Source: Candidatus Omnitrophota bacterium (GTDB lineage: Bacteria > Omnitrophota > Gorgyraeia > Zapsychrales > Zapsychraceae). From it: 58,349 nucleotides of DNA. Where the stretch lies: contig DPIG01000055.1 of the NCBI GenBank assembly GCA_003522725.1, positions 1 to 58,349 of the forward strand. Direction: 5' to 3'. The translations under genes and the position numbers were made by a program. The first letter of the stretch is position 1, and each line of letters begins with the position of its first letter. This document shows positions 1-58,348 of this stretch, one piece after another. The notes beneath the pieces were generated by a model. It did not search any database. It was not told where the DNA came from and worked only from the letters and a program-made list of their open reading frames with translations.

Positions 1-63
1 GTATTTTCTGCTCTGATTAGTAATTGAGTTGCTAACTCAATAAACCCAACGAACCCAAAAAAC

Positions 64-2959: not shown

Positions 2960-2985
2960 GCGATTTCCTTTCTTTTATAATCCAT

Positions 2986-3010
2986 CCCCTAACCCCTATT
3001 CCCTTTACCC
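2986..3010 (-). repeat. Four-run G-quadruplex-type motif on the transcribed strand
   Basis: Minus strand reads GGGTAAAGGGAATAGGGGTTAGGGG (loops 4/4/3). It sits in the 53-nt spacer between the TPR gene stop (3013) and the DUF4139 ATG (2959). Confidence 0.5.
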
Positions 3011-3012
3011 TG

Positions 3013-4692
3013 TTACAAATCTTCCAGTTTCTTGCGCGCCCGGGCGTCGTAAGGATTCAGCTCCAGCACCTTTTCAAAATCCGCTTTGGCGCCGTCGGTG
3101 TCGCCTCTTTGAATAAGCGTCAGCCCCCGGTAATAATACGCGTTGGCATAGCGGGGATTCAATTCAATGGCCCGCGTATAATCAGCGACCGCTTTTTCGT
3201 AATCGCCTTTACCATCCCAGGCCTTGCCGCGGTTGATGAACGCGAACGCGTATTTGGGTTTGAGCCCTATCGCCTTGTCGCAATCCGTGATCGCTTTATC
3301 AAACTCTCCCTGGAGCGCGTACACGTCGCAGCGGCCATTATAAGCCGTGGGAGATTTGGGGTCGGATTCAATGGCTTTGGTGTATTCGGCCAGCGCGCGC
3401 GCGTACTCGCCCATTTCGGAATAAGCGTTGCCGAGCCCGGTGAGCGCCTTGGCATTTTTGGGGTCCTTCGCGGCCGCCGCGTTAAATTCCGGCAAACGCC
3501 GGCCCCACTCGCCCAGATGAGCGTAAACATTCTCAATCTTAGTCACCGTAAATTTCTTCTCAGCCAATTTTCTCCCGCCATCCCGCAATTGCAGGGTCCA
3601 CGCACCTGGCGCAATCTCCCATTCCCTCGTAAAGACCCAGCTGACCATCTCTGTTTCGCCGGGACGGACACTCAACGGCGTCTCGTGCGTGGTGGTGATC
3701 TCCCGTGTGAGCGCGTTGGCCATCGGTGGATGAAGATACCGCGCCGTCAAGAAAAGTGGATCCTTGCCCTTGACCGTAAAAACAAATCCGAAGGCCGTGC
3801 CGAGCGTGCCCGGCACCGTATCTTTCTCTGCCACGAATTTCCGGGTGCGCAGATACCGGCTGTTATTTCCAAGCGTGTACCCGCCTTCTTGCGCAATGAC
3901 TTCTTTTCTCACAACCCCGGCATAAACAACCTCGATCGGCAAATCCTCTGAAGAAATGGAAACAACGTCTTGCGGCTGCTTTTTCGCGGAAGCCGTCTCT
4001 TCGGGTTCTGCAATATCAAAGAGCTTGTCCGGGAACTGGTTATTGACCGCGATGTCACGCCACTCGGCGGCAAAAGAGGCCTGGCCGTCCTCGTAGAACA
4101 CGGACTTCAAAATACGCCAGTCGGCGATGCGGATGACGTACGCATACTCTTCCCCGGTGCCTTTGGGCTTAAACGTGAGGATATACGTGGGTCCACCCGC
4201 GGCGGCGTCATCGCGCAGGATCGTGTACGGGGTATTCTTCGCCATATATTTCTTCAGGTTCGCGACAATGCGTTCCTGGCTCGGCCACACCGGCCAGGTG
4301 TCTGGGGGGAGTTTCTGGCGCGCCGTCTGGCCCGTTGAATAGGCGTACTGGTAGCTGAACCATTCCTGACCTTCTTTGCGGATAATGATCTTGTAATCTC
4401 CGGCAACGATCTTCATCTTGTCGGGCTTTTTGATCCACACGGACATCCGGGCCTCTTCCGGCAAGGTAGCGCTGCCGGCTTGCTGCGCGGCCGTGTTTAA
4501 TTTTTCAATACTGGAACCCTTGGCCGCGGCGGTGACAAAAACAAACGTCATGTCCTTAACAGATTGCTGCGCCCGGTCCATGTTCCACAAAAGGTCCCGC
4601 AACAGGATATCCCCCCCGCCCTGCGCCGCCGCGGACGTGGCGTACAACATCGCAACGAAGACAAGGATACGCCATAATATCTTAATGACCAT
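3013..4692 (-). CDS. Secreted TPR-repeat protein with an uncharacterised N-terminal half
   Basis: Signal peptide VIKILWRILVFVAMLYATSAAAQ. The C-terminal ~170 aa hold 4-5 TPR units (GLGNAYSEMGEYARALAEYTKAIE, AYNGRCDVYALQGEFDKAITDCDKAI, AFINRGKAWDGKGDYEKAVADYTRAIE, AYYYRGLTLIQRGDTDGAKADFEKVLE). ATG 4692 has a GAGG SD; the ORF-track start 4713 is TTG. Confidence 0.8.
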   Translation of the reverse strand: MVIKILWRILVFVAMLYATSAAAQGGGDILLRDLLWNMDRAQQSVKDMTFVFVTAAAKGSSIEKLNTAAQQAGSATLPEEARMSVWIKKPDKMKIVAGDYKIIIRKEGQEWFSYQYAYSTGQTARQKLPPDTWPVWPSQERIVANLKKYMAKNTPYTILRDDAAAGGPTYILTFKPKGTGEEYAYVIRIADWRILKSVFYEDGQASFAAEWRDIAVNNQFPDKLFDIAEPEETASAKKQPQDVVSISSEDLPIEVVYAGVVRKEVIAQEGGYTLGNNSRYLRTRKFVAEKDTVPGTLGTAFGFVFTVKGKDPLFLTARYLHPPMANALTREITTTHETPLSVRPGETEMVSWVFTREWEIAPGAWTLQLRDGGRKLAEKKFTVTKIENVYAHLGEWGRRLPEFNAAAAKDPKNAKALTGLGNAYSEMGEYARALAEYTKAIESDPKSPTAYNGRCDVYALQGEFDKAITDCDKAIGLKPKYAFAFINRGKAWDGKGDYEKAVADYTRAIELNPRYANAYYYRGLTLIQRGDTDGAKADFEKVLELNPYDARARKKLEDL

Positions 4693-38529: not shown

Positions 38530-38603
38530 CAGGCCTGGTAGGACTCGAACCTACAACCCACGGTTTTGGAGACCGTCGCTCTACCAATTAGAGCTACAGG
38601 CCT
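38530..38603 (-). tRNA. tRNA-Trp (anticodon CCA)
   Basis: Minus strand AGGCCTGTAGCTCTAATTGGTAGAGCGACGGTCTCCAAAACCGTGGGTTGTAGGTTCGAGTCCTACCAGGCCTG folds as a cloverleaf. It has a 7-bp acceptor stem, CTCCAAA anticodon loop, TTCGAGT T-loop and discriminator G; no CCA is encoded. Confidence 0.95.
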
Positions 38604-38853: not shown

Positions 38854-38926
38854 AGCCCCCGACCGGAATTGAACCGGTGACCTCGTCCTTACCAAGAACG
38901 TGCTCTACCGACTGAGCTACAGGGGC
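38854..38926 (-). tRNA. tRNA-Thr (anticodon GGT)
   Basis: Minus strand GCCCCTGTAGCTCAGTCGGTAGAGCACGTTCTTGGTAAGGACGAGGTCACCGGTTCAATTCCGGTCGGGGGCT folds as a cloverleaf with TTGGTAA anticodon loop and TTCAATT T-loop. One G-U pair lies in the acceptor stem. Confidence 0.95.
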
Positions 38927-53815: not shown

Positions 53816-53864
53816 GTAGTAATTAAAAATAATTAAAAATAATTGCCGGGAGTTTTTATCGCAA

Positions 53865-53904
53865 GAAAACAGGAGGCTCATCGAACAAGCCTCCTGTTTT
53901 TTTC
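53865..53904 (-). terminator. Rho-independent terminator after the pilin gene (symmetric, could act in both directions)
   Basis: A perfect 10-bp stem ACAGGAGGCT/AGCCTCCTGT is flanked by A4 and T7 runs. It lies about 30 nt downstream of the pilin stop at 53932. Confidence 0.8.
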
Positions 53905-53931: not shown

Positions 53932-54327
53932 TTACGGCGTTAAAATACCGCCTGTGGTCATGGTGTAGGTGGTTGTACCTGTCGTACCAGCCGTGACAGG
54001 CGTTGCCGTGAATGTGTAGCCGCCCATCCCCAGATTGCACCCATAGGTAAACCCTGCTATGGTCTGGTTACAATAACTGGTATTGACATACGGCGGTGTC
54101 GCCCCGGTTAGGGATGTTTCAGCGCCGGGATAATTCCCGCTGTTCGCGGTAGCGTACGTTTCAGATGACGTCGAAAGAGTACGTAACGTACTCTTAGCAA
54201 GCGCATCGTTGGCCGAGATCCTTGCCCTCAATAAGTTCGGAATGGCAATAGCGGCCAATAACGCGATGATCGCGACGACAATCATGATTTCCACAAGCGT
54301 GAAACCCTTTTGATTGCCTCTTTTCAT
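53932..54327 (-). CDS. pilA: Type IVa major pilin (prepilin)
   Basis: ATG 54327 follows an AGGAGG SD. The leader MKRGNQKG is followed by FTLVEIMIVVAIIALLAAIAIP (class III signal, Gly-1/Phe+1/Glu+5). A Cys pair (YCNQTIAGFTYGC) and a Thr/Gly-rich C-terminus follow. The ORF-track start 54444 is upstream of the SD. Confidence 0.93.
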   Translation of the reverse strand: MKRGNQKGFTLVEIMIVVAIIALLAAIAIPNLLRARISANDALAKSTLRTLSTSSETYATANSGNYPGAETSLTGATPPYVNTSYCNQTIAGFTYGCNLGMGGYTFTATPVTAGTTGTTTYTMTTGGILTP

Positions 54328-54501: not shown

Positions 54502-54530
54502 ATTCTAGACCCTCTTTTCCGGGTTGTCAA
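54502..54530 (-). promoter_or_regulatory. Candidate sigma70-type promoter proximal to the pilin gene
   Basis: Minus strand reads TTGACA -17 nt- TAGAAT. It lies just downstream of the riboswitch terminator and would give a ~170-nt pilin leader. Confidence 0.5.
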
Positions 54531-54540
54531 TTCATTCTTC

Positions 54541-54575
54541 AATAAAAAAGCCTATTCCCACCGTAGGAAATAGGC
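54541..54575 (-). terminator. Intrinsic terminator forming the 3' end/expression platform of the riboswitch unit
   Basis: Minus strand reads GCCTATTTCCTACGGTGGGAATAGGC followed by TTTTTTATT. Confidence 0.75.
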
Positions 54576-54600
54576 ACGCATATTCTGCGATCACTTCGCA

Positions 54601-54690
54601 GCGGCAACTGGCTGTCCTGTACCGTACGGTACAGGACCCTCTAGCTTTGTGCCCCACCCTTACGAATGGTTTACCTTTTTCAACTGCACC
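54601..54690 (-). promoter_or_regulatory. c-di-GMP-I (GEMM-I) riboswitch aptamer
   Basis: Minus strand reads GGTAAACCATTCGTAAGGGTGGGGCACAAAGC... This closely matches the remembered V. cholerae Vc2 core GGCAAACCATTCGAAAGAGTGGGACGCAAAGCC. It has a GNRA (GUAA)-capped CCAUUC/GGGUGG hairpin, a CAAAGC linker, a second 10-bp hairpin (54614-54637) and a following AGCC. Confidence 0.8.
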
Positions 54691-54708
54691 CTGATTATGC
54701 TTGCTTAA

Positions 54709-54738
54709 AGTATAACATTTTCTGTTTGAATTTGCCAA
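54709..54738 (-). promoter_or_regulatory. Candidate extended -10 promoter driving the riboswitch
   Basis: Minus strand reads TTGGCA -18 nt- TATACT with TGT immediately upstream of the -10. The predicted start lies about 10-25 nt before the aptamer. Confidence 0.45.
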
Positions 54739-54785: not shown

Positions 54786-55574
54786 CTATGGGGAAACAGC
54801 GGTGGCTCCAAAACCGAACACTTCCTTCTTAAGACGGATATTTTCATCGTAGAGGGCGACAAACCTCTTTCGCAATTGAAAGCTCTCTTCCGTAAACTGA
54901 TCGGCATCGATTGGTTCTTCTGAAGAGGATCGGGACAGCTTTCTTTCCAGTTCTTTCTGCCGCGTTTTCAATTTCGAGATCTCTTTGCCTAACCGGTTAG
55001 CGTACGTCTTTGCCGATTCCAGTTTCACGCCGGCTTGCCTATCGACAAGCTGTTGTTGCAATTGTGCCCGCCTTGCCTTCAATCGGGCGATAACGGCACC
55101 CCCCGTGTTTTGTTCTCTCATCGTTTTGACATCCAAACGCGCCGCGCGCAATTTTTTTCGGCTTTGTTCCAGGGCCGTATCCAGCTCGCCTTTTTTCTGC
55201 TGAAACGCTCCCTCGATCGCTTCTTTAGAATTGGAATTTATTCCATCCTTTAACCGCCTGATTTCTTGATAATCGCTGGCTTCCGGGGACATCACTCCTG
55301 CTTTCCCTTGACCACCGGGCATGGCTGACAATTCCGTTCTTTGAGACGCCAGGGAATCCAGCTCTTGCCGCAGAGATTGAATATGTTTGCGATATCCTTC
55401 GATCTCGGAAGATAAAAGACGGTTCTGATCAGAGAGCTTCTGATAGCTGTCTTTCAACCCTTCCAGGCTCATGTCGACCATCTTCTCGATCGTCCCGCTT
55501 TCTGAAGACCGCGCAAAAAGAAAAAACGCGCTGCATACGCACAGGAAAAAAATTATAAATATTTTCTTCATCAT
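54786..55574 (-). CDS. Secreted coiled-coil protein of unknown function, translationally coupled to pilC
   Basis: 262 aa; signal peptide MMKKIFIIFFLCVCSAFFLFA. The remainder is heptad-like, Gln/Glu/Lys/Arg/Leu-rich helical sequence. Its ATG shares one base with the pilC stop (TAATG). Confidence 0.75.
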   Translation of the reverse strand: MMKKIFIIFFLCVCSAFFLFARSSESGTIEKMVDMSLEGLKDSYQKLSDQNRLLSSEIEGYRKHIQSLRQELDSLASQRTELSAMPGGQGKAGVMSPEASDYQEIRRLKDGINSNSKEAIEGAFQQKKGELDTALEQSRKKLRAARLDVKTMREQNTGGAVIARLKARRAQLQQQLVDRQAGVKLESAKTYANRLGKEISKLKTRQKELERKLSRSSSEEPIDADQFTEESFQLRKRFVALYDENIRLKKEVFGFGATAVSP

Positions 55575-56809: not shown

Positions 56810-57262
56810 CTAGCGATAACACTGGCTGATCGCCTTTTCGATTTCCCTGCGGGTAGAAATAAAAGGAGCTACCCGGCAATTGGTGCGTTGGCCGACATCT
56901 GCCCTTAGGACCATATCCAAAGGGTCCAGCATCACAAGGCTCAAGACATCACCCACCCGATCCAGGGGCATGATGCAGCAGCGGCAAGCCAGTTCTTTAG
57001 GGACAAGCGCGAGTACGTCGCGGTTGATCTCATAACGATCAACGGCAATATAAGGAAGGTGGCATTGGATAACCAGGGCGGCGATGACTTCCTGCTCTTC
57101 GATGAAGCCAAATCCGACCAAAATTTCTCCGAGGTAACCTCCCTCACGTCTCTGGGTACGTAAGGCCAGCTCTAATTGGTCAAGCGTGATTTTCTTGCGC
57201 TCAAGAAGGATCTCCCCCAAGAAGCGCTTTTTACCTGTGATGTTTTTGTCTCCCTCTGACAT
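56810..57262 (-). CDS. Standalone MshEN/GspE_N (T2SSE N-terminal) domain protein, candidate c-di-GMP receptor
   Basis: 150 aa with ATG and a GGAGAG SD. Two tandem 24-residue motifs are FLGEILLERKKITLDQLELALRTQ and YLGEILVGFGFIEEQEVIAALVIQ, separated by 5 residues. The rest resembles the GspE N-terminal fold. Confidence 0.7.
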   Translation of the reverse strand: MSEGDKNITGKKRFLGEILLERKKITLDQLELALRTQRREGGYLGEILVGFGFIEEQEVIAALVIQCHLPYIAVDRYEINRDVLALVPKELACRCCIMPLDRVGDVLSLVMLDPLDMVLRADVGQRTNCRVAPFISTRREIEKAISQCYR

Positions 57263-57373: not shown

Positions 57374-58348
57374 TTATTCGCTGGTTGTCACCCTCAACAC
57401 TTCCTCAAGCGTGGTCAACCCACTGACGCATTTTTCCATCGCGTCTTCCCAAAGCGTCTCCATCCCCTTTTTATCCTGCGAGTACTTTTTTATATCCCCG
57501 GAAGATTTTCCGCCAAGCAACATATCGCGTATCGTATCATCTATTTCCAGAACCTCGGTAATCCCTAAACGTCCACGATAACCCGTATTAAGACATCCCT
57601 TGCACCCCTTGCCGGTGTAAAAGACGACTCCGGGGCTGAAACGATAATCCAATTCCTTGAGGACTTCTTTGGGGATATCCACAGGCTGTTTGCATTGTTC
57701 ACAGATCCTCCGGCAAAGGCGCTGGGCGCTGACTAAAATCAAACTGGAAGCGACCAGAAACGGTTCCACTCCCATGTCAATCAACCGCGTCAGGGCTCCG
57801 GCGGCGTCGTTGGTGTGCAGTGTAGAAAGGACCAATTGTCCCGTCAAGGAAGCTTTGATCGAGATATCAGCGGTTTCATTGTCCCGAATCTCGCCGATCA
57901 TCACCACGTCCGGGCTCTGGCGCAAAATGGCCCGCAACCCTTCGGCAAAAGTGAGTCCGATCTCGGCGTTGGTATGAATTTGGGTCAGCCCATCGACCAG
58001 ATATTCGACCGGGTCTTCAACCGTGACGATATTCCTGTCGACGGTATTAAGGGTATTGAGCATGGAATACAAGGTCGTCGATTTTCCGCTTCCCGTCGGG
58101 CCGGTGACCAGCATCATGCCAAACGGCCTTTTGACCGCCTCTTCCATGATCTTGACGTGCTTCTCGGTGAAACCAAGTCCGCCCAGCCCGATGGACAGGC
58201 TTTCCTTATCCAGAACACGCATAACGATCTTGTGCCCGAAGGTGATGGGAAGAATCGATACGCGAAAATCGACCTCCTTCCTGGCAACCTTCAACTTGAA
58301 ACGTCCATCCTGCGGTACATAGACGGAGGTGATGTCCAGCCGGGACAT
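57374..58348 (-). CDS. pilB: Type IV pilus assembly ATPase PilB (GspE family), 5' end outside the window
   Basis: Walker A GPTGSGKST, Walker B/Asp box VMIGEIRD, His box TGQLVLSTLHT, tetracysteine motif CRRICEQC...CKGCLNTGYRGR. The ORF runs off the window edge. Confidence 0.93.
   Translation of the reverse strand: MSRLDITSVYVPQDGRFKLKVARKEVDFRVSILPITFGHKIVMRVLDKESLSIGLGGLGFTEKHVKIMEEAVKRPFGMMLVTGPTGSGKSTTLYSMLNTLNTVDRNIVTVEDPVEYLVDGLTQIHTNAEIGLTFAEGLRAILRQSPDVVMIGEIRDNETADISIKASLTGQLVLSTLHTNDAAGALTRLIDMGVEPFLVASSLILVSAQRLCRRICEQCKQPVDIPKEVLKELDYRFSPGVVFYTGKGCKGCLNTGYRGRLGITEVLEIDDTIRDMLLGGKSSGDIKKYSQDKKGMETLWEDAMEKCVSGLTTLEEVLRVTTSE

Follow-up and report, generated by a model that had tools for sequence, protein, structure and literature searches.

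A predicted class I c-di-GMP (GEMM-I) riboswitch unit ahead of the type IV pilin gene in an Omnitrophota pilus cluster

Class I cyclic di-GMP (c-di-GMP-I, GEMM-I) riboswitches of the kind represented by Vc2 and Vc1 of Vibrio cholerae (RF01051) are built from helices P1, P1a and P1b, with a GNRA tetraloop on P1a and GGYAAACC and CAAAGC junctions, and the class is defined by the ligand contacts G20, A47 and C92 in Vc2 numbering (PMC4744006). Two layouts with termination control are described. In Cd1, the c-di-GMP-I OFF switch of the Clostridioides difficile flgB operon, the aptamer and a separate downstream terminator can coexist and compete with an antiterminator made of aptamer strands, transiently stable relative to the terminator, whereas in the Geobacter metallireducens pilM riboswitch (GEMM-Ib), an ON switch ahead of pilMNOPQ, aptamer and terminator are mutually exclusive (PMC9262584). 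Cdi-2-4 of C. difficile, a demonstrated ON switch with the unrelated class II fold, lies with its terminator directly ahead of the major pilin gene pilA1 (PMC6366702), and the merRNA (massively expressed riboswitch RNA) of the predatory bacterium Bdellovibrio bacteriovorus carries a GEMM-I aptamer on a discrete RNA of 445 nt without a conserved downstream open reading frame (ORF) (PMC3627812). Here we describe a GEMM-I element on the minus strand of a contig from a Candidatus Omnitrophota bacterium (DPIG01000055.1, assembly GCA_003522725.1), where it lies directly ahead of a type IV pilin gene. The whole 58,349-nt stretch analysed is called the window, positions refer to it, and related loci and units are identified by L numbers. 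Cyclic-dinucleotide switches before pilus genes being known from Geobacter pilM and C. difficile pilA1, an earlier note on this DNA was right that the riboswitch class is not new.

Searched with Rfam at gathering thresholds, the 58-kb window gave a single riboswitch match, a whole-model GEMM-I alignment at 54599-54684 (-) with E=2e-11; our own covariance model also found one only and scored it at 89.8 bits. The fold of 54535-54700 was more stable than that of shuffles (z-score -4.7) which, together with the single match, indicates that the resemblance is not due to chance. The conserved core started about 25 nt past a promoter-like site at 54738-54709 and held all features by which c-di-GMP-I is recognized at the sequence level, namely the three-helix fold, G20, A47 and C92, and the equivalents of C44 and G83, which in Vc2 form a universally conserved Watson-Crick pair between helices and are predicted to do so here. 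The helices, the GNRA tetraloop of P1a, both junctions, the ligand contacts and the nucleotides of the C/G interhelix pair are shared with Vc2 (PMC4744006). Differences from Vc2 and Vc1 are the phylum (Omnitrophota), a U-A instead of a C-G as the outer pair of P1a, a P1b in the form of a long perfect hairpin, a transcription terminator as expression platform, and the filing under RF03167 by Rfam's clan competition. At the aligned receptor position the P1b of the window has an asymmetric internal loop, and docking of the GNRA tetraloop is a prediction only. A 6-bp hairpin (H1) takes up the 3' strand of helix P1 (CUGC, 54601-54598), making H1 and helix P1 alternatives; the spacers of L007 and L008 also contain a GCAG copy of the P1 5' strand.

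The hairpins named in the earlier note, P1a with its GUAA loop, the 10-bp stem of P1b with a GUAC loop and the 6-bp hairpin, were all found on the minus strand. Its statement that G20, A47 and C92 are retained also held, with the exception that C92 had been placed at about 54611, within the AGCC on the 3' side of P1b; the correct C is 7 nt away, at 54604. The evidence supports the assignment of this element, on sequence grounds, to the class I c-di-GMP (GEMM-I) riboswitches, standing before a type IV pilin gene, and its aptamer would be expected to bind c-di-GMP.

Conservation was analyzed in a sample of 80 Omnitrophota pilM loci, with a covariance model built from 13 homologues. Six contigs with an identical pilin were 100% identical over 501 nt and gave no covariation signal, so that variation was taken from the more distant pilM loci. 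Searching with nhmmer and the window aptamer, then with the covariance model, revealed homologues of the aptamer in 24 of these loci, on the same strand as pilM. They lay 1-3 kb upstream of pilM in 22 of these and about 4 kb upstream, cut off at the 5' end of the locus, in L020 and L034. Over 20 modelled pairs and 28 distinct relatives, 96.9% of cells were standard pairs and compensatory changes on both sides were found in 10 of the 20 pairs. None of 500 shuffles matched the observed pairing and covariation, and pairing fell to 31-51% when 3' partners were slid as a control; the alignment was fitted to the model, which biases the pair counts in favour of the structure, although by far less than the margin seen. 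Incompatible pairing in homologous loci had been set beforehand as a possible refutation, and pairing there proved compatible with the fold. The pocket columns were invariant (G20 in 28/28, A47 in 26/26, C92 in 29/29), as were those of the interhelix pair (C and G, each 27/27), while the P1a tetraloop was GUAA, GAAA or GCAA. Helix P1 was short and variable, as it usually is in this class; duplexes with its own partner averaged -3.5 kcal/mol vs -1.85 kcal/mol for swapped partners, and the P1 of the window was the strongest in the set. Core lengths included 63, 66, 67, 69, 71, 73, 75, 85, 88, 103, 127 and 148 nt. A pilin-like ORF followed 132-417 nt after the T tract in all 23 pilM-locus units with a mapped terminator. 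The claim of a c-di-GMP-I aptamer with its own promoter and terminator before the pilin gene is thus borne out by the Rfam match, the invariant pocket, covariation, and the conserved promoter and terminator.

Several relatives depart from the arrangement of the window. The closest ones (L007:3011-3137, L022:2668-2815 and L008:3105-3207) carry insertions of 30-75 nt in P1b, which in L007 and L022 apparently form extra branching hairpins while the core is identical; P1b therefore seems to be a hot spot of expansion, of which the window has the short form. Two units occur in some loci (L068:936-1045 and 1123-1232; L074:1840-1938 and 2975-3073; L015:29-127 and 2756-2846). Those of L068 stand in tandem, each with a terminator, ahead of one pilin gene, and L074 has two successive pilin genes, each with its own promoter-riboswitch-terminator unit. 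Two identical copies in L036 (2215-2298 and 2883-2966) keep the 5' half of the aptamer only (J1, P1a and GGACC; 27 bits with our own model) and may be decayed riboswitches or a different element on the same hairpin.

The element is preceded by a sigma-70-like promoter (promoter P1), from which transcription is expected to start near 54702. A TTGACA-16..18-(TG)TATACT sequence preceded 21 of 22 related units at a near-fixed distance, with 29-36 nt between the end of the -10 hexamer and GGTAAACC in most of them. The intrinsic terminator has a stem-loop energy of -19 kcal/mol, begins 22 nt past helix P1 and has no nucleotides in common with the aptamer; among related pilM loci a terminator lay 34-61 nt past the aptamer in 23 of the 24 units examined. 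The TTGGCA-18-TGtTATACT promoter and the U6 terminator of the earlier note are hence present and conserved in relatives. The note had described the unit without a second promoter, overlooking P2, which stands ahead of the pilin gene and begins 13 nt after the U tract of the terminator. Among the window, L007 and L008 its hexamers are invariant and its spacer is divergent, as would be expected if the promoter is real. A P2-like site was found between terminator and pilin gene in 15 of 23 related units and in the other 8 there was none. With P2, pilin transcription would be possible without passing the riboswitch, which is thus not the sole route to pilin expression. No terminator was found by the terminator scan between the stop of the upstream coiled-coil gene (54786) and promoter P1, so that transcripts from P1 and any that read through from the pilB-pilC side would both come under the riboswitch.

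The spacer of P2 contains a purine-rich, Shine-Dalgarno-like tract, which reads GGAAAAGAGGG in the window. Many relatives (L007, L008, L020, L022, L023, L032, L035 and L044) have AAGGAGGTG just upstream of the P2 -10 hexamer, and a GAAAGGAGG tract also follows the terminator in L048 and L055, without a clear -35. The tract could be bound by a regulator or, through the TG of GGTG, belong to an extended -10. A role as a decoy Shine-Dalgarno sequence, in which this GGAGG tract would free the real site on read-through transcripts, was dropped, GCCUCUUUCC pairing with GGGAAGAGGG within the leader.

A sample unbiased towards pilus loci was obtained by scanning metagenome contigs with a degenerate pattern for the aptamer subfamily, which gave more than 119 stretches. 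A terminator followed 35-75 nt after the aptamer in 47 of the 53 units with enough downstream sequence. The genes behind these units encoded pilins, TPS-domain exoproteins (PF05860), a response-regulator receiver and several secreted proteins of unassigned family. In many units the start codon was just 15-80 nt past the U tract, leaving no space for another promoter; such genes would be expressed only by read-through, and the terminator must therefore be conditional in the module. By extension, it would be conditional in the window too. Six units (L100, L107, L108, L110, L135 and L160), which stand ahead of a TPS-domain exoprotein either directly or with a small ORF in between, have two successive terminators, CCCAUUC...GAAUGGG-U7 and then CCCCAUUUCC...GGGG-U6. 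This L100 group resembles the dual-terminator platform of Bc1 of Bacillus thuringiensis (PMC11218506).

Table 1. Features of the riboswitch unit and the pilin gene behind it, in window coordinates.
Feature	Position	Strand	Description
Promoter P1	54709..54738	(-)	TTGGCA (54738-54733), 18-nt spacer, TG-extended TATACT (54714-54709); 10/12 consensus positions
Helix P1	~54681-54688 paired with 54597-54603	(-)	
P1a	54649-54674	(-)	hairpin CCAUUC-GUAA-GGGUGG 54669-54654, GUAA tetraloop 54663-54660
P1b	54606-54646	(-)	includes perfect 10-bp stem with GUAC loop, 54637-54614
Pocket nucleotides	G20=54675, A47=54648, C92=54604	(-)	Rfam alignment, Vc2 numbering
Interhelix-pair equivalents	C54651, G54612	(-)	bulge after P1a; AG bulge of P1b
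Hairpin H1	54585-54601	(-)	CUGCGA-AGUGA-UCGCAG, 6 bp; in minimum-energy folds
Predicted antiterminator partners	54672-54681, or 54649-54654 + 54657-54659	(-)	GAAAAAGGUA, including G20; or GGGCAC (54649-54654) with 54657-54659
Switching strand (predicted)	54566..54577	(-)	terminator 5' strand + 2 nt (GUGCCUAUUUCC)
Intrinsic terminator	54544..54575	(-)	stem GCCUAUUUCC / GGGAAUAGGC (54575-54550; 10 bp, loop 6), then U6 54549-54544
Promoter P2	54502..54530	(-)	TTGACA-17-TAGAAT; 11/12 consensus positions
Pilin mRNA leader from P2	54328..54495	(-)	~168 nt, extended hairpin including GGGAAGAGGG paired with GCCUCUUUCC
Type IV pilin gene	53932..54327	(-)	131 aa, starts MKRGNQKGFTLVEIMIV; PF07963 N_methyl E=1.2e-9
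Terminator-like hairpin after pilin stop	53863..53898	(-)	11-bp stem, 9-nt loop, UUUUCUU; read from sequence

As to the direction of switching, we lean towards a transcription-terminating OFF switch with a Cd1-type layout, in which c-di-GMP would lead to termination. RNA would start from promoter P1, perhaps joined by transcripts running on from the pilC and coiled-coil genes upstream, and the first ~100 nt of the P1 RNA would fold as the GEMM-I aptamer. Without c-di-GMP, the purine-rich pocket strands, GAAAAAGGUA (with G20) and GGGCAC (just 5' of A47), would be free and H1 would hold the 3' strand of helix P1; the pyrimidine-rich GUGCCUAUUUCC, emerging next, would pair with the free pocket strands as an antiterminator, allowing RNA polymerase to read on to the pilin. 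Binding of c-di-GMP would lock the pocket strands, the pyrimidine strand would pair with GGGAAUAGGC to form the terminator, and transcription would end at the U tract. The ligand would in this way turn OFF the P1-derived share of pilin mRNA, with P2 supplying riboswitch-independent pilin mRNA, and the riboswitch most likely tunes pilin mRNA over this P2 baseline.

The OFF assignment is suggested by the compatibility of aptamer and terminator, which occurred together both in the full-length minimum-energy fold and in the aptamer-enforced fold, as in the Cd1 layout and not the mutually exclusive pilM layout (PMC9262584). In the best fold of the nascent transcript (54702->54564), UGCCUAUUUC (54576-54567) was paired with GAAAAAGGUA (54681-54672) and H1 held the P1 3' strand, with an energy of -50.4 kcal/mol vs -39.3 kcal/mol for the aptamer-enforced fold. 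In a second register GUGCCU (54577-54572) paired with GGGCAC (54654-54649); the duplex energies of the two predicted partners were -8.2 and -12.5 kcal/mol. Of 108 terminator-like hairpins used as controls from the same loci, just 0.9% paired as well with the G20 junction. The 5' strands of riboswitch-linked terminators were 82% pyrimidine vs 44% in controls, and 83% of them, with at least five unrelated stem sequences, were at least 75% pyrimidine, as opposed to 3.7% of controls. Their duplex with the P1a loop and 3' strand averaged -9.3 kcal/mol (controls, -5.0), and the P1a 3' strand was the best partner in 38 of 48 metagenome units. In a subgroup, terminator strands with CCUAUUCUUUGUG are complementary to CACAAAGCUAUAGG, including A47, at -15 to -18 kcal/mol. 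Such pairings are predicted to break up the aptamer while leaving the 3' strand of the terminator unpaired, which implies read-through without ligand and termination with it. The likeness to Cd1 extends to the predicted transient antiterminator from aptamer strands. Unlike Cd1, which controls flagellar genes and uses the 3' strand of P1 as its antiterminator, the window unit precedes a pilin gene, its OFF direction is predicted, and its antiterminator is predicted to involve the G20 junction, GGGCAC or the 3' strand of P1a. The P1b 5' strand (GCUAUAGG) was also considered as an antiterminator partner; it works for the relatives with CCUAUUCUUUGUG and fails in the window, where P1b reads GCUAGAGG.

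A number of points weigh against an OFF switch of this design. When the whole aptamer was taken as the target, the advantage of the duplexes was small (-11.5 vs -9.8 kcal/mol), with a median of 29% of controls as good. The predicted antiterminator register varies by lineage, the window and L007 using the G20 junction or GGGCAC and most others the P1a 3' strand, and the three closest relatives, with identical sequences, gave no antiterminator covariation. Opening P1a, a stable hairpin, would also be kinetically demanding. The biological context points weakly towards ON: pilin and adhesin genes are switched ON by c-di-GMP in C. difficile (PMC6366702), and the pilus cluster of the window encodes a protein with an MshEN domain, a c-di-GMP receptor domain. 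P2 looks strong, and the effect of the riboswitch on pilin levels may be modest. The computation establishes what the aptamer is, its G20/A47/C92 pocket signature, the promoter, the terminator and the conservation of these parts, whereas binding, conditional termination and direction are all predictions.

The opposite direction, in which c-di-GMP acting on the same aptamer and terminator would prevent termination and raise pilin transcription as at C. difficile pilA1 and Geobacter pilM, appears unlikely, even though the genes behind the module (pilins, TPS exoproteins, surface proteins) are of a type usually induced by c-di-GMP (PMC6366702). A relay is conceivable, as H1 holds the P1 3' strand without ligand and formation of helix P1 would release UCGCAGAAUA, a possible partner for the UAUUU in the 5' strand of the terminator. 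This GAAUA/UAUUU pairing, of five A-U or G-U pairs, is the sole candidate for a ligand-dependent antiterminator; it is far weaker than the -19 kcal/mol terminator and not conserved in L007 and L008, and the relay via H1 was rejected on both counts. Such a relay would further need a terminator 5' strand resembling the variable P1 3' strand, whereas the sequence actually conserved is CCYAUUC. The terminator hairpin is self-contained, standing clear of helix P1 and free of aptamer nucleotides, and still forms with the aptamer enforced; in contrast to the pilM riboswitch, the two are compatible. Cdi-2-4 has the corresponding position ahead of a pilin gene, with the difference that a second downstream promoter is unreported there.

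Less probable still is that promoter P1 and a constitutive terminator delimit an abundant, stand-alone aptamer RNA of ~155 nt, which would buffer or store c-di-GMP or act in trans, as proposed for the Bdellovibrio merRNA, the pilin being expressed from P2 only. The near-consensus, conserved promoter P1, the strong terminator (10 bp and U6), the near-consensus P2 so close behind the U tract and its counterparts in 15 of 23 relatives would all fit such an RNA. The merRNA also provides a precedent in a bacterium dependent on other cells (PMC3627812), and Omnitrophota are thought to be host-dependent (PMC10066038). Nevertheless, the module is always co-oriented with and directly upstream of a surface-protein gene, 8 of the 23 pilin units lack a P2-like site, and the many metagenome units with a gene start immediately past the terminator and no second promoter need read-through. 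merRNA, moreover, is defined by the absence of a conserved downstream ORF, whereas a co-oriented pilin or adhesin gene always follows here, with the pilin-like ORF in 23/23 pilM-locus units. If true, a stand-alone RNA would be a second, independent case of merRNA, physically coupled to an attachment organelle, in ultra-small, host-dependent Omnitrophota cells.

The family label given by Rfam raises a different question, that of the ligand. The top family for the window was RF03167 (c-di-GMP-I-GGC) with 59.1 bits, 0.1 bit above its cutoff of 59, and it was still the top family for a 5'-truncated stretch. Rfam lists the best family per clan; one further, lower-scoring match of the same clan, its family not displayed, was also above its own cutoff. 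The orphan variant, sensing a ligand other than c-di-GMP, would thus have the best score and very similar peripheral sequence (AAAAAGG, GACAGCC, UGCC) on its side. The RF03167 consensus is CGC-G-AAG, with a conserved G after the closing pair of P1a (position 47), whereas the window reads CAC-A-AAG, and the 'GGC' of the name reportedly refers to positions 20, 47 and 92 (attributed to Weinberg et al. 2017). G47 was absent from all eight RF03167-labelled sequences in this study, including the best (73.3 bits), all of which have A47. In 16 related loci, 7 aptamers were labelled RF03167 (59.7-73.3 bits) and 12 RF01051 (37.7-60 bits), and the number of undisplayed clan matches was also 7, the same as that of RF03167 labels. 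Relatives with the core of the window scored 47-60 bits for RF01051, against a gathering cutoff of 35 bits, and closely similar relatives alternated between both labels; the RF03167 label was given despite a canonical G20/A47/C92 pocket in L015:36-123, L040, L074, L023 and L044. The presence of A47 in all labelled sequences and the match between undisplayed hits and RF03167 labels suggest that the label arises from clan competition between closely similar models and is uninformative on the ligand, and we regard a change of ligand of this kind as very improbable. As for a switch to another known ligand, the Geobacter pilM riboswitch senses cyclic GMP-AMP (c-GAMP), via an A at position 20, the nucleotide that defines the c-AMP-GMP (GEMM-Ib) variants; the window, unlike pilM, has G at this position (G54675), as do 28/28 relatives. 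c-AMP-GMP variants differ in one pocket nucleotide (PMC9481103). The RF03167 model fails to discriminate on the nucleotide behind its name, automated labels may mislead, and a c-di-GMP-I-GGC label should not be taken as evidence of a different ligand.

That there is no RNA element, and that chance resemblance or one of two small ORFs on the mechanical ORF list (54532-54738 (-), 68 aa; 54524-54694 (+), 56 aa) accounts for the pattern, is hardly credible, as the 68-aa ORF starts with TTG, relatives differ by indels and in core length by amounts that are not multiples of three, which rules out the overlapping small ORFs, and stems with compensatory substitutions and an Rfam E-value of 2e-11 stand against chance.

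The pilin ATG at 54327 was, as the earlier note had stated, 213 nt after 54541, followed by an N_methyl motif and preceded by a Shine-Dalgarno sequence (GGAGG, 54340-54336). The leader of the mRNA from P2 folded at -54.8 kcal/mol (z = -2.1), with compensatory changes vs L007, and its hairpin may serve pilin mRNA stabilisation or translation control. The strong terminator-like hairpin after the pilin stop was not reported by the terminator scanner, probably because of the scanner's loop limit of 8. Past this hairpin there is a direct repeat, attatttttaatt, present twice (53820-53850 (-)), and possible promoter hexamers stand ahead of pilM; the pilin gene and pilMNOPQ may be separate transcription units.

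The gene order on the minus strand was PilB-like ATPase, MshEN-domain protein, PilC, coiled-coil protein, riboswitch, pilin, PilM, PilN, PilO, PilP-like protein and secretin, placing the riboswitch inside a type IV pilus cluster and directly ahead of its pilin gene. The identical pilin with the same neighbours was found on 23 contigs from groundwater and similar metagenomes, including the GenBank metagenome-assembled genome GCA_003529035.1, and homologues of the adjacent PilM were annotated as Candidatus Omnitrophica or Omnitrophota. Between the PilB-like ATPase (57374-58348), which has no N-terminal MshEN domain, and PilC lies a stand-alone MshEN-domain protein of 150 aa (56810-57262 (-); PF05157, E=8.5e-15) with two tandem LGxxLLxxxxIxxxxLxxALxxQ-like motifs. 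In MshE-type ATPases, which take part in type IV pilus formation, the MshEN domain is known as a c-di-GMP receptor (PMC5013675), and the stand-alone protein could give this pilus a second c-di-GMP input, at the protein level. The gene at 54786-55574 (-), located between pilC and the riboswitch, encodes a protein of 262 aa with a signal peptide and long coiled coils, kept at the same position on all contigs with the pilin; Pfam gave it sub-threshold matches only, with coiled-coil families such as Filament, in keeping with compositional bias. Among window ORFs of at least 120 aa no GGDEF, HD-GYP or PilZ motifs were found, and for EAL two chance EAL-like strings only, a result that is uninformative for a 58-kb piece of a genome. 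Two tRNA genes at 38530-38603 (-) and 38854-38926 (-) (Rfam) are unrelated to the riboswitch.

The RNA class and its mechanism are already well known, and nothing changes for the riboswitch class itself; the novelty lies in the host phylum and the regulon, and the arrangement promoter-riboswitch-terminator-promoter is noteworthy. Omnitrophota are an uncultivated phylum of mostly ultra-small, probably host-dependent bacteria, and neither c-di-GMP nor riboswitches appear in the main survey of the phylum (PMC10066038). Genomic hints of how Omnitrophota attach to hosts come mainly from their type IV pili and large surface proteins. The riboswitch cassette, present in ~30% of the sampled pilM loci as well as before genes for TPS exoproteins and secreted proteins, outlines a concrete and testable c-di-GMP regulon, and as an RNA of ~100 nt amenable to in vitro tests that need no cultivation, it offers an entry point to signalling in an uncultivated phylum.

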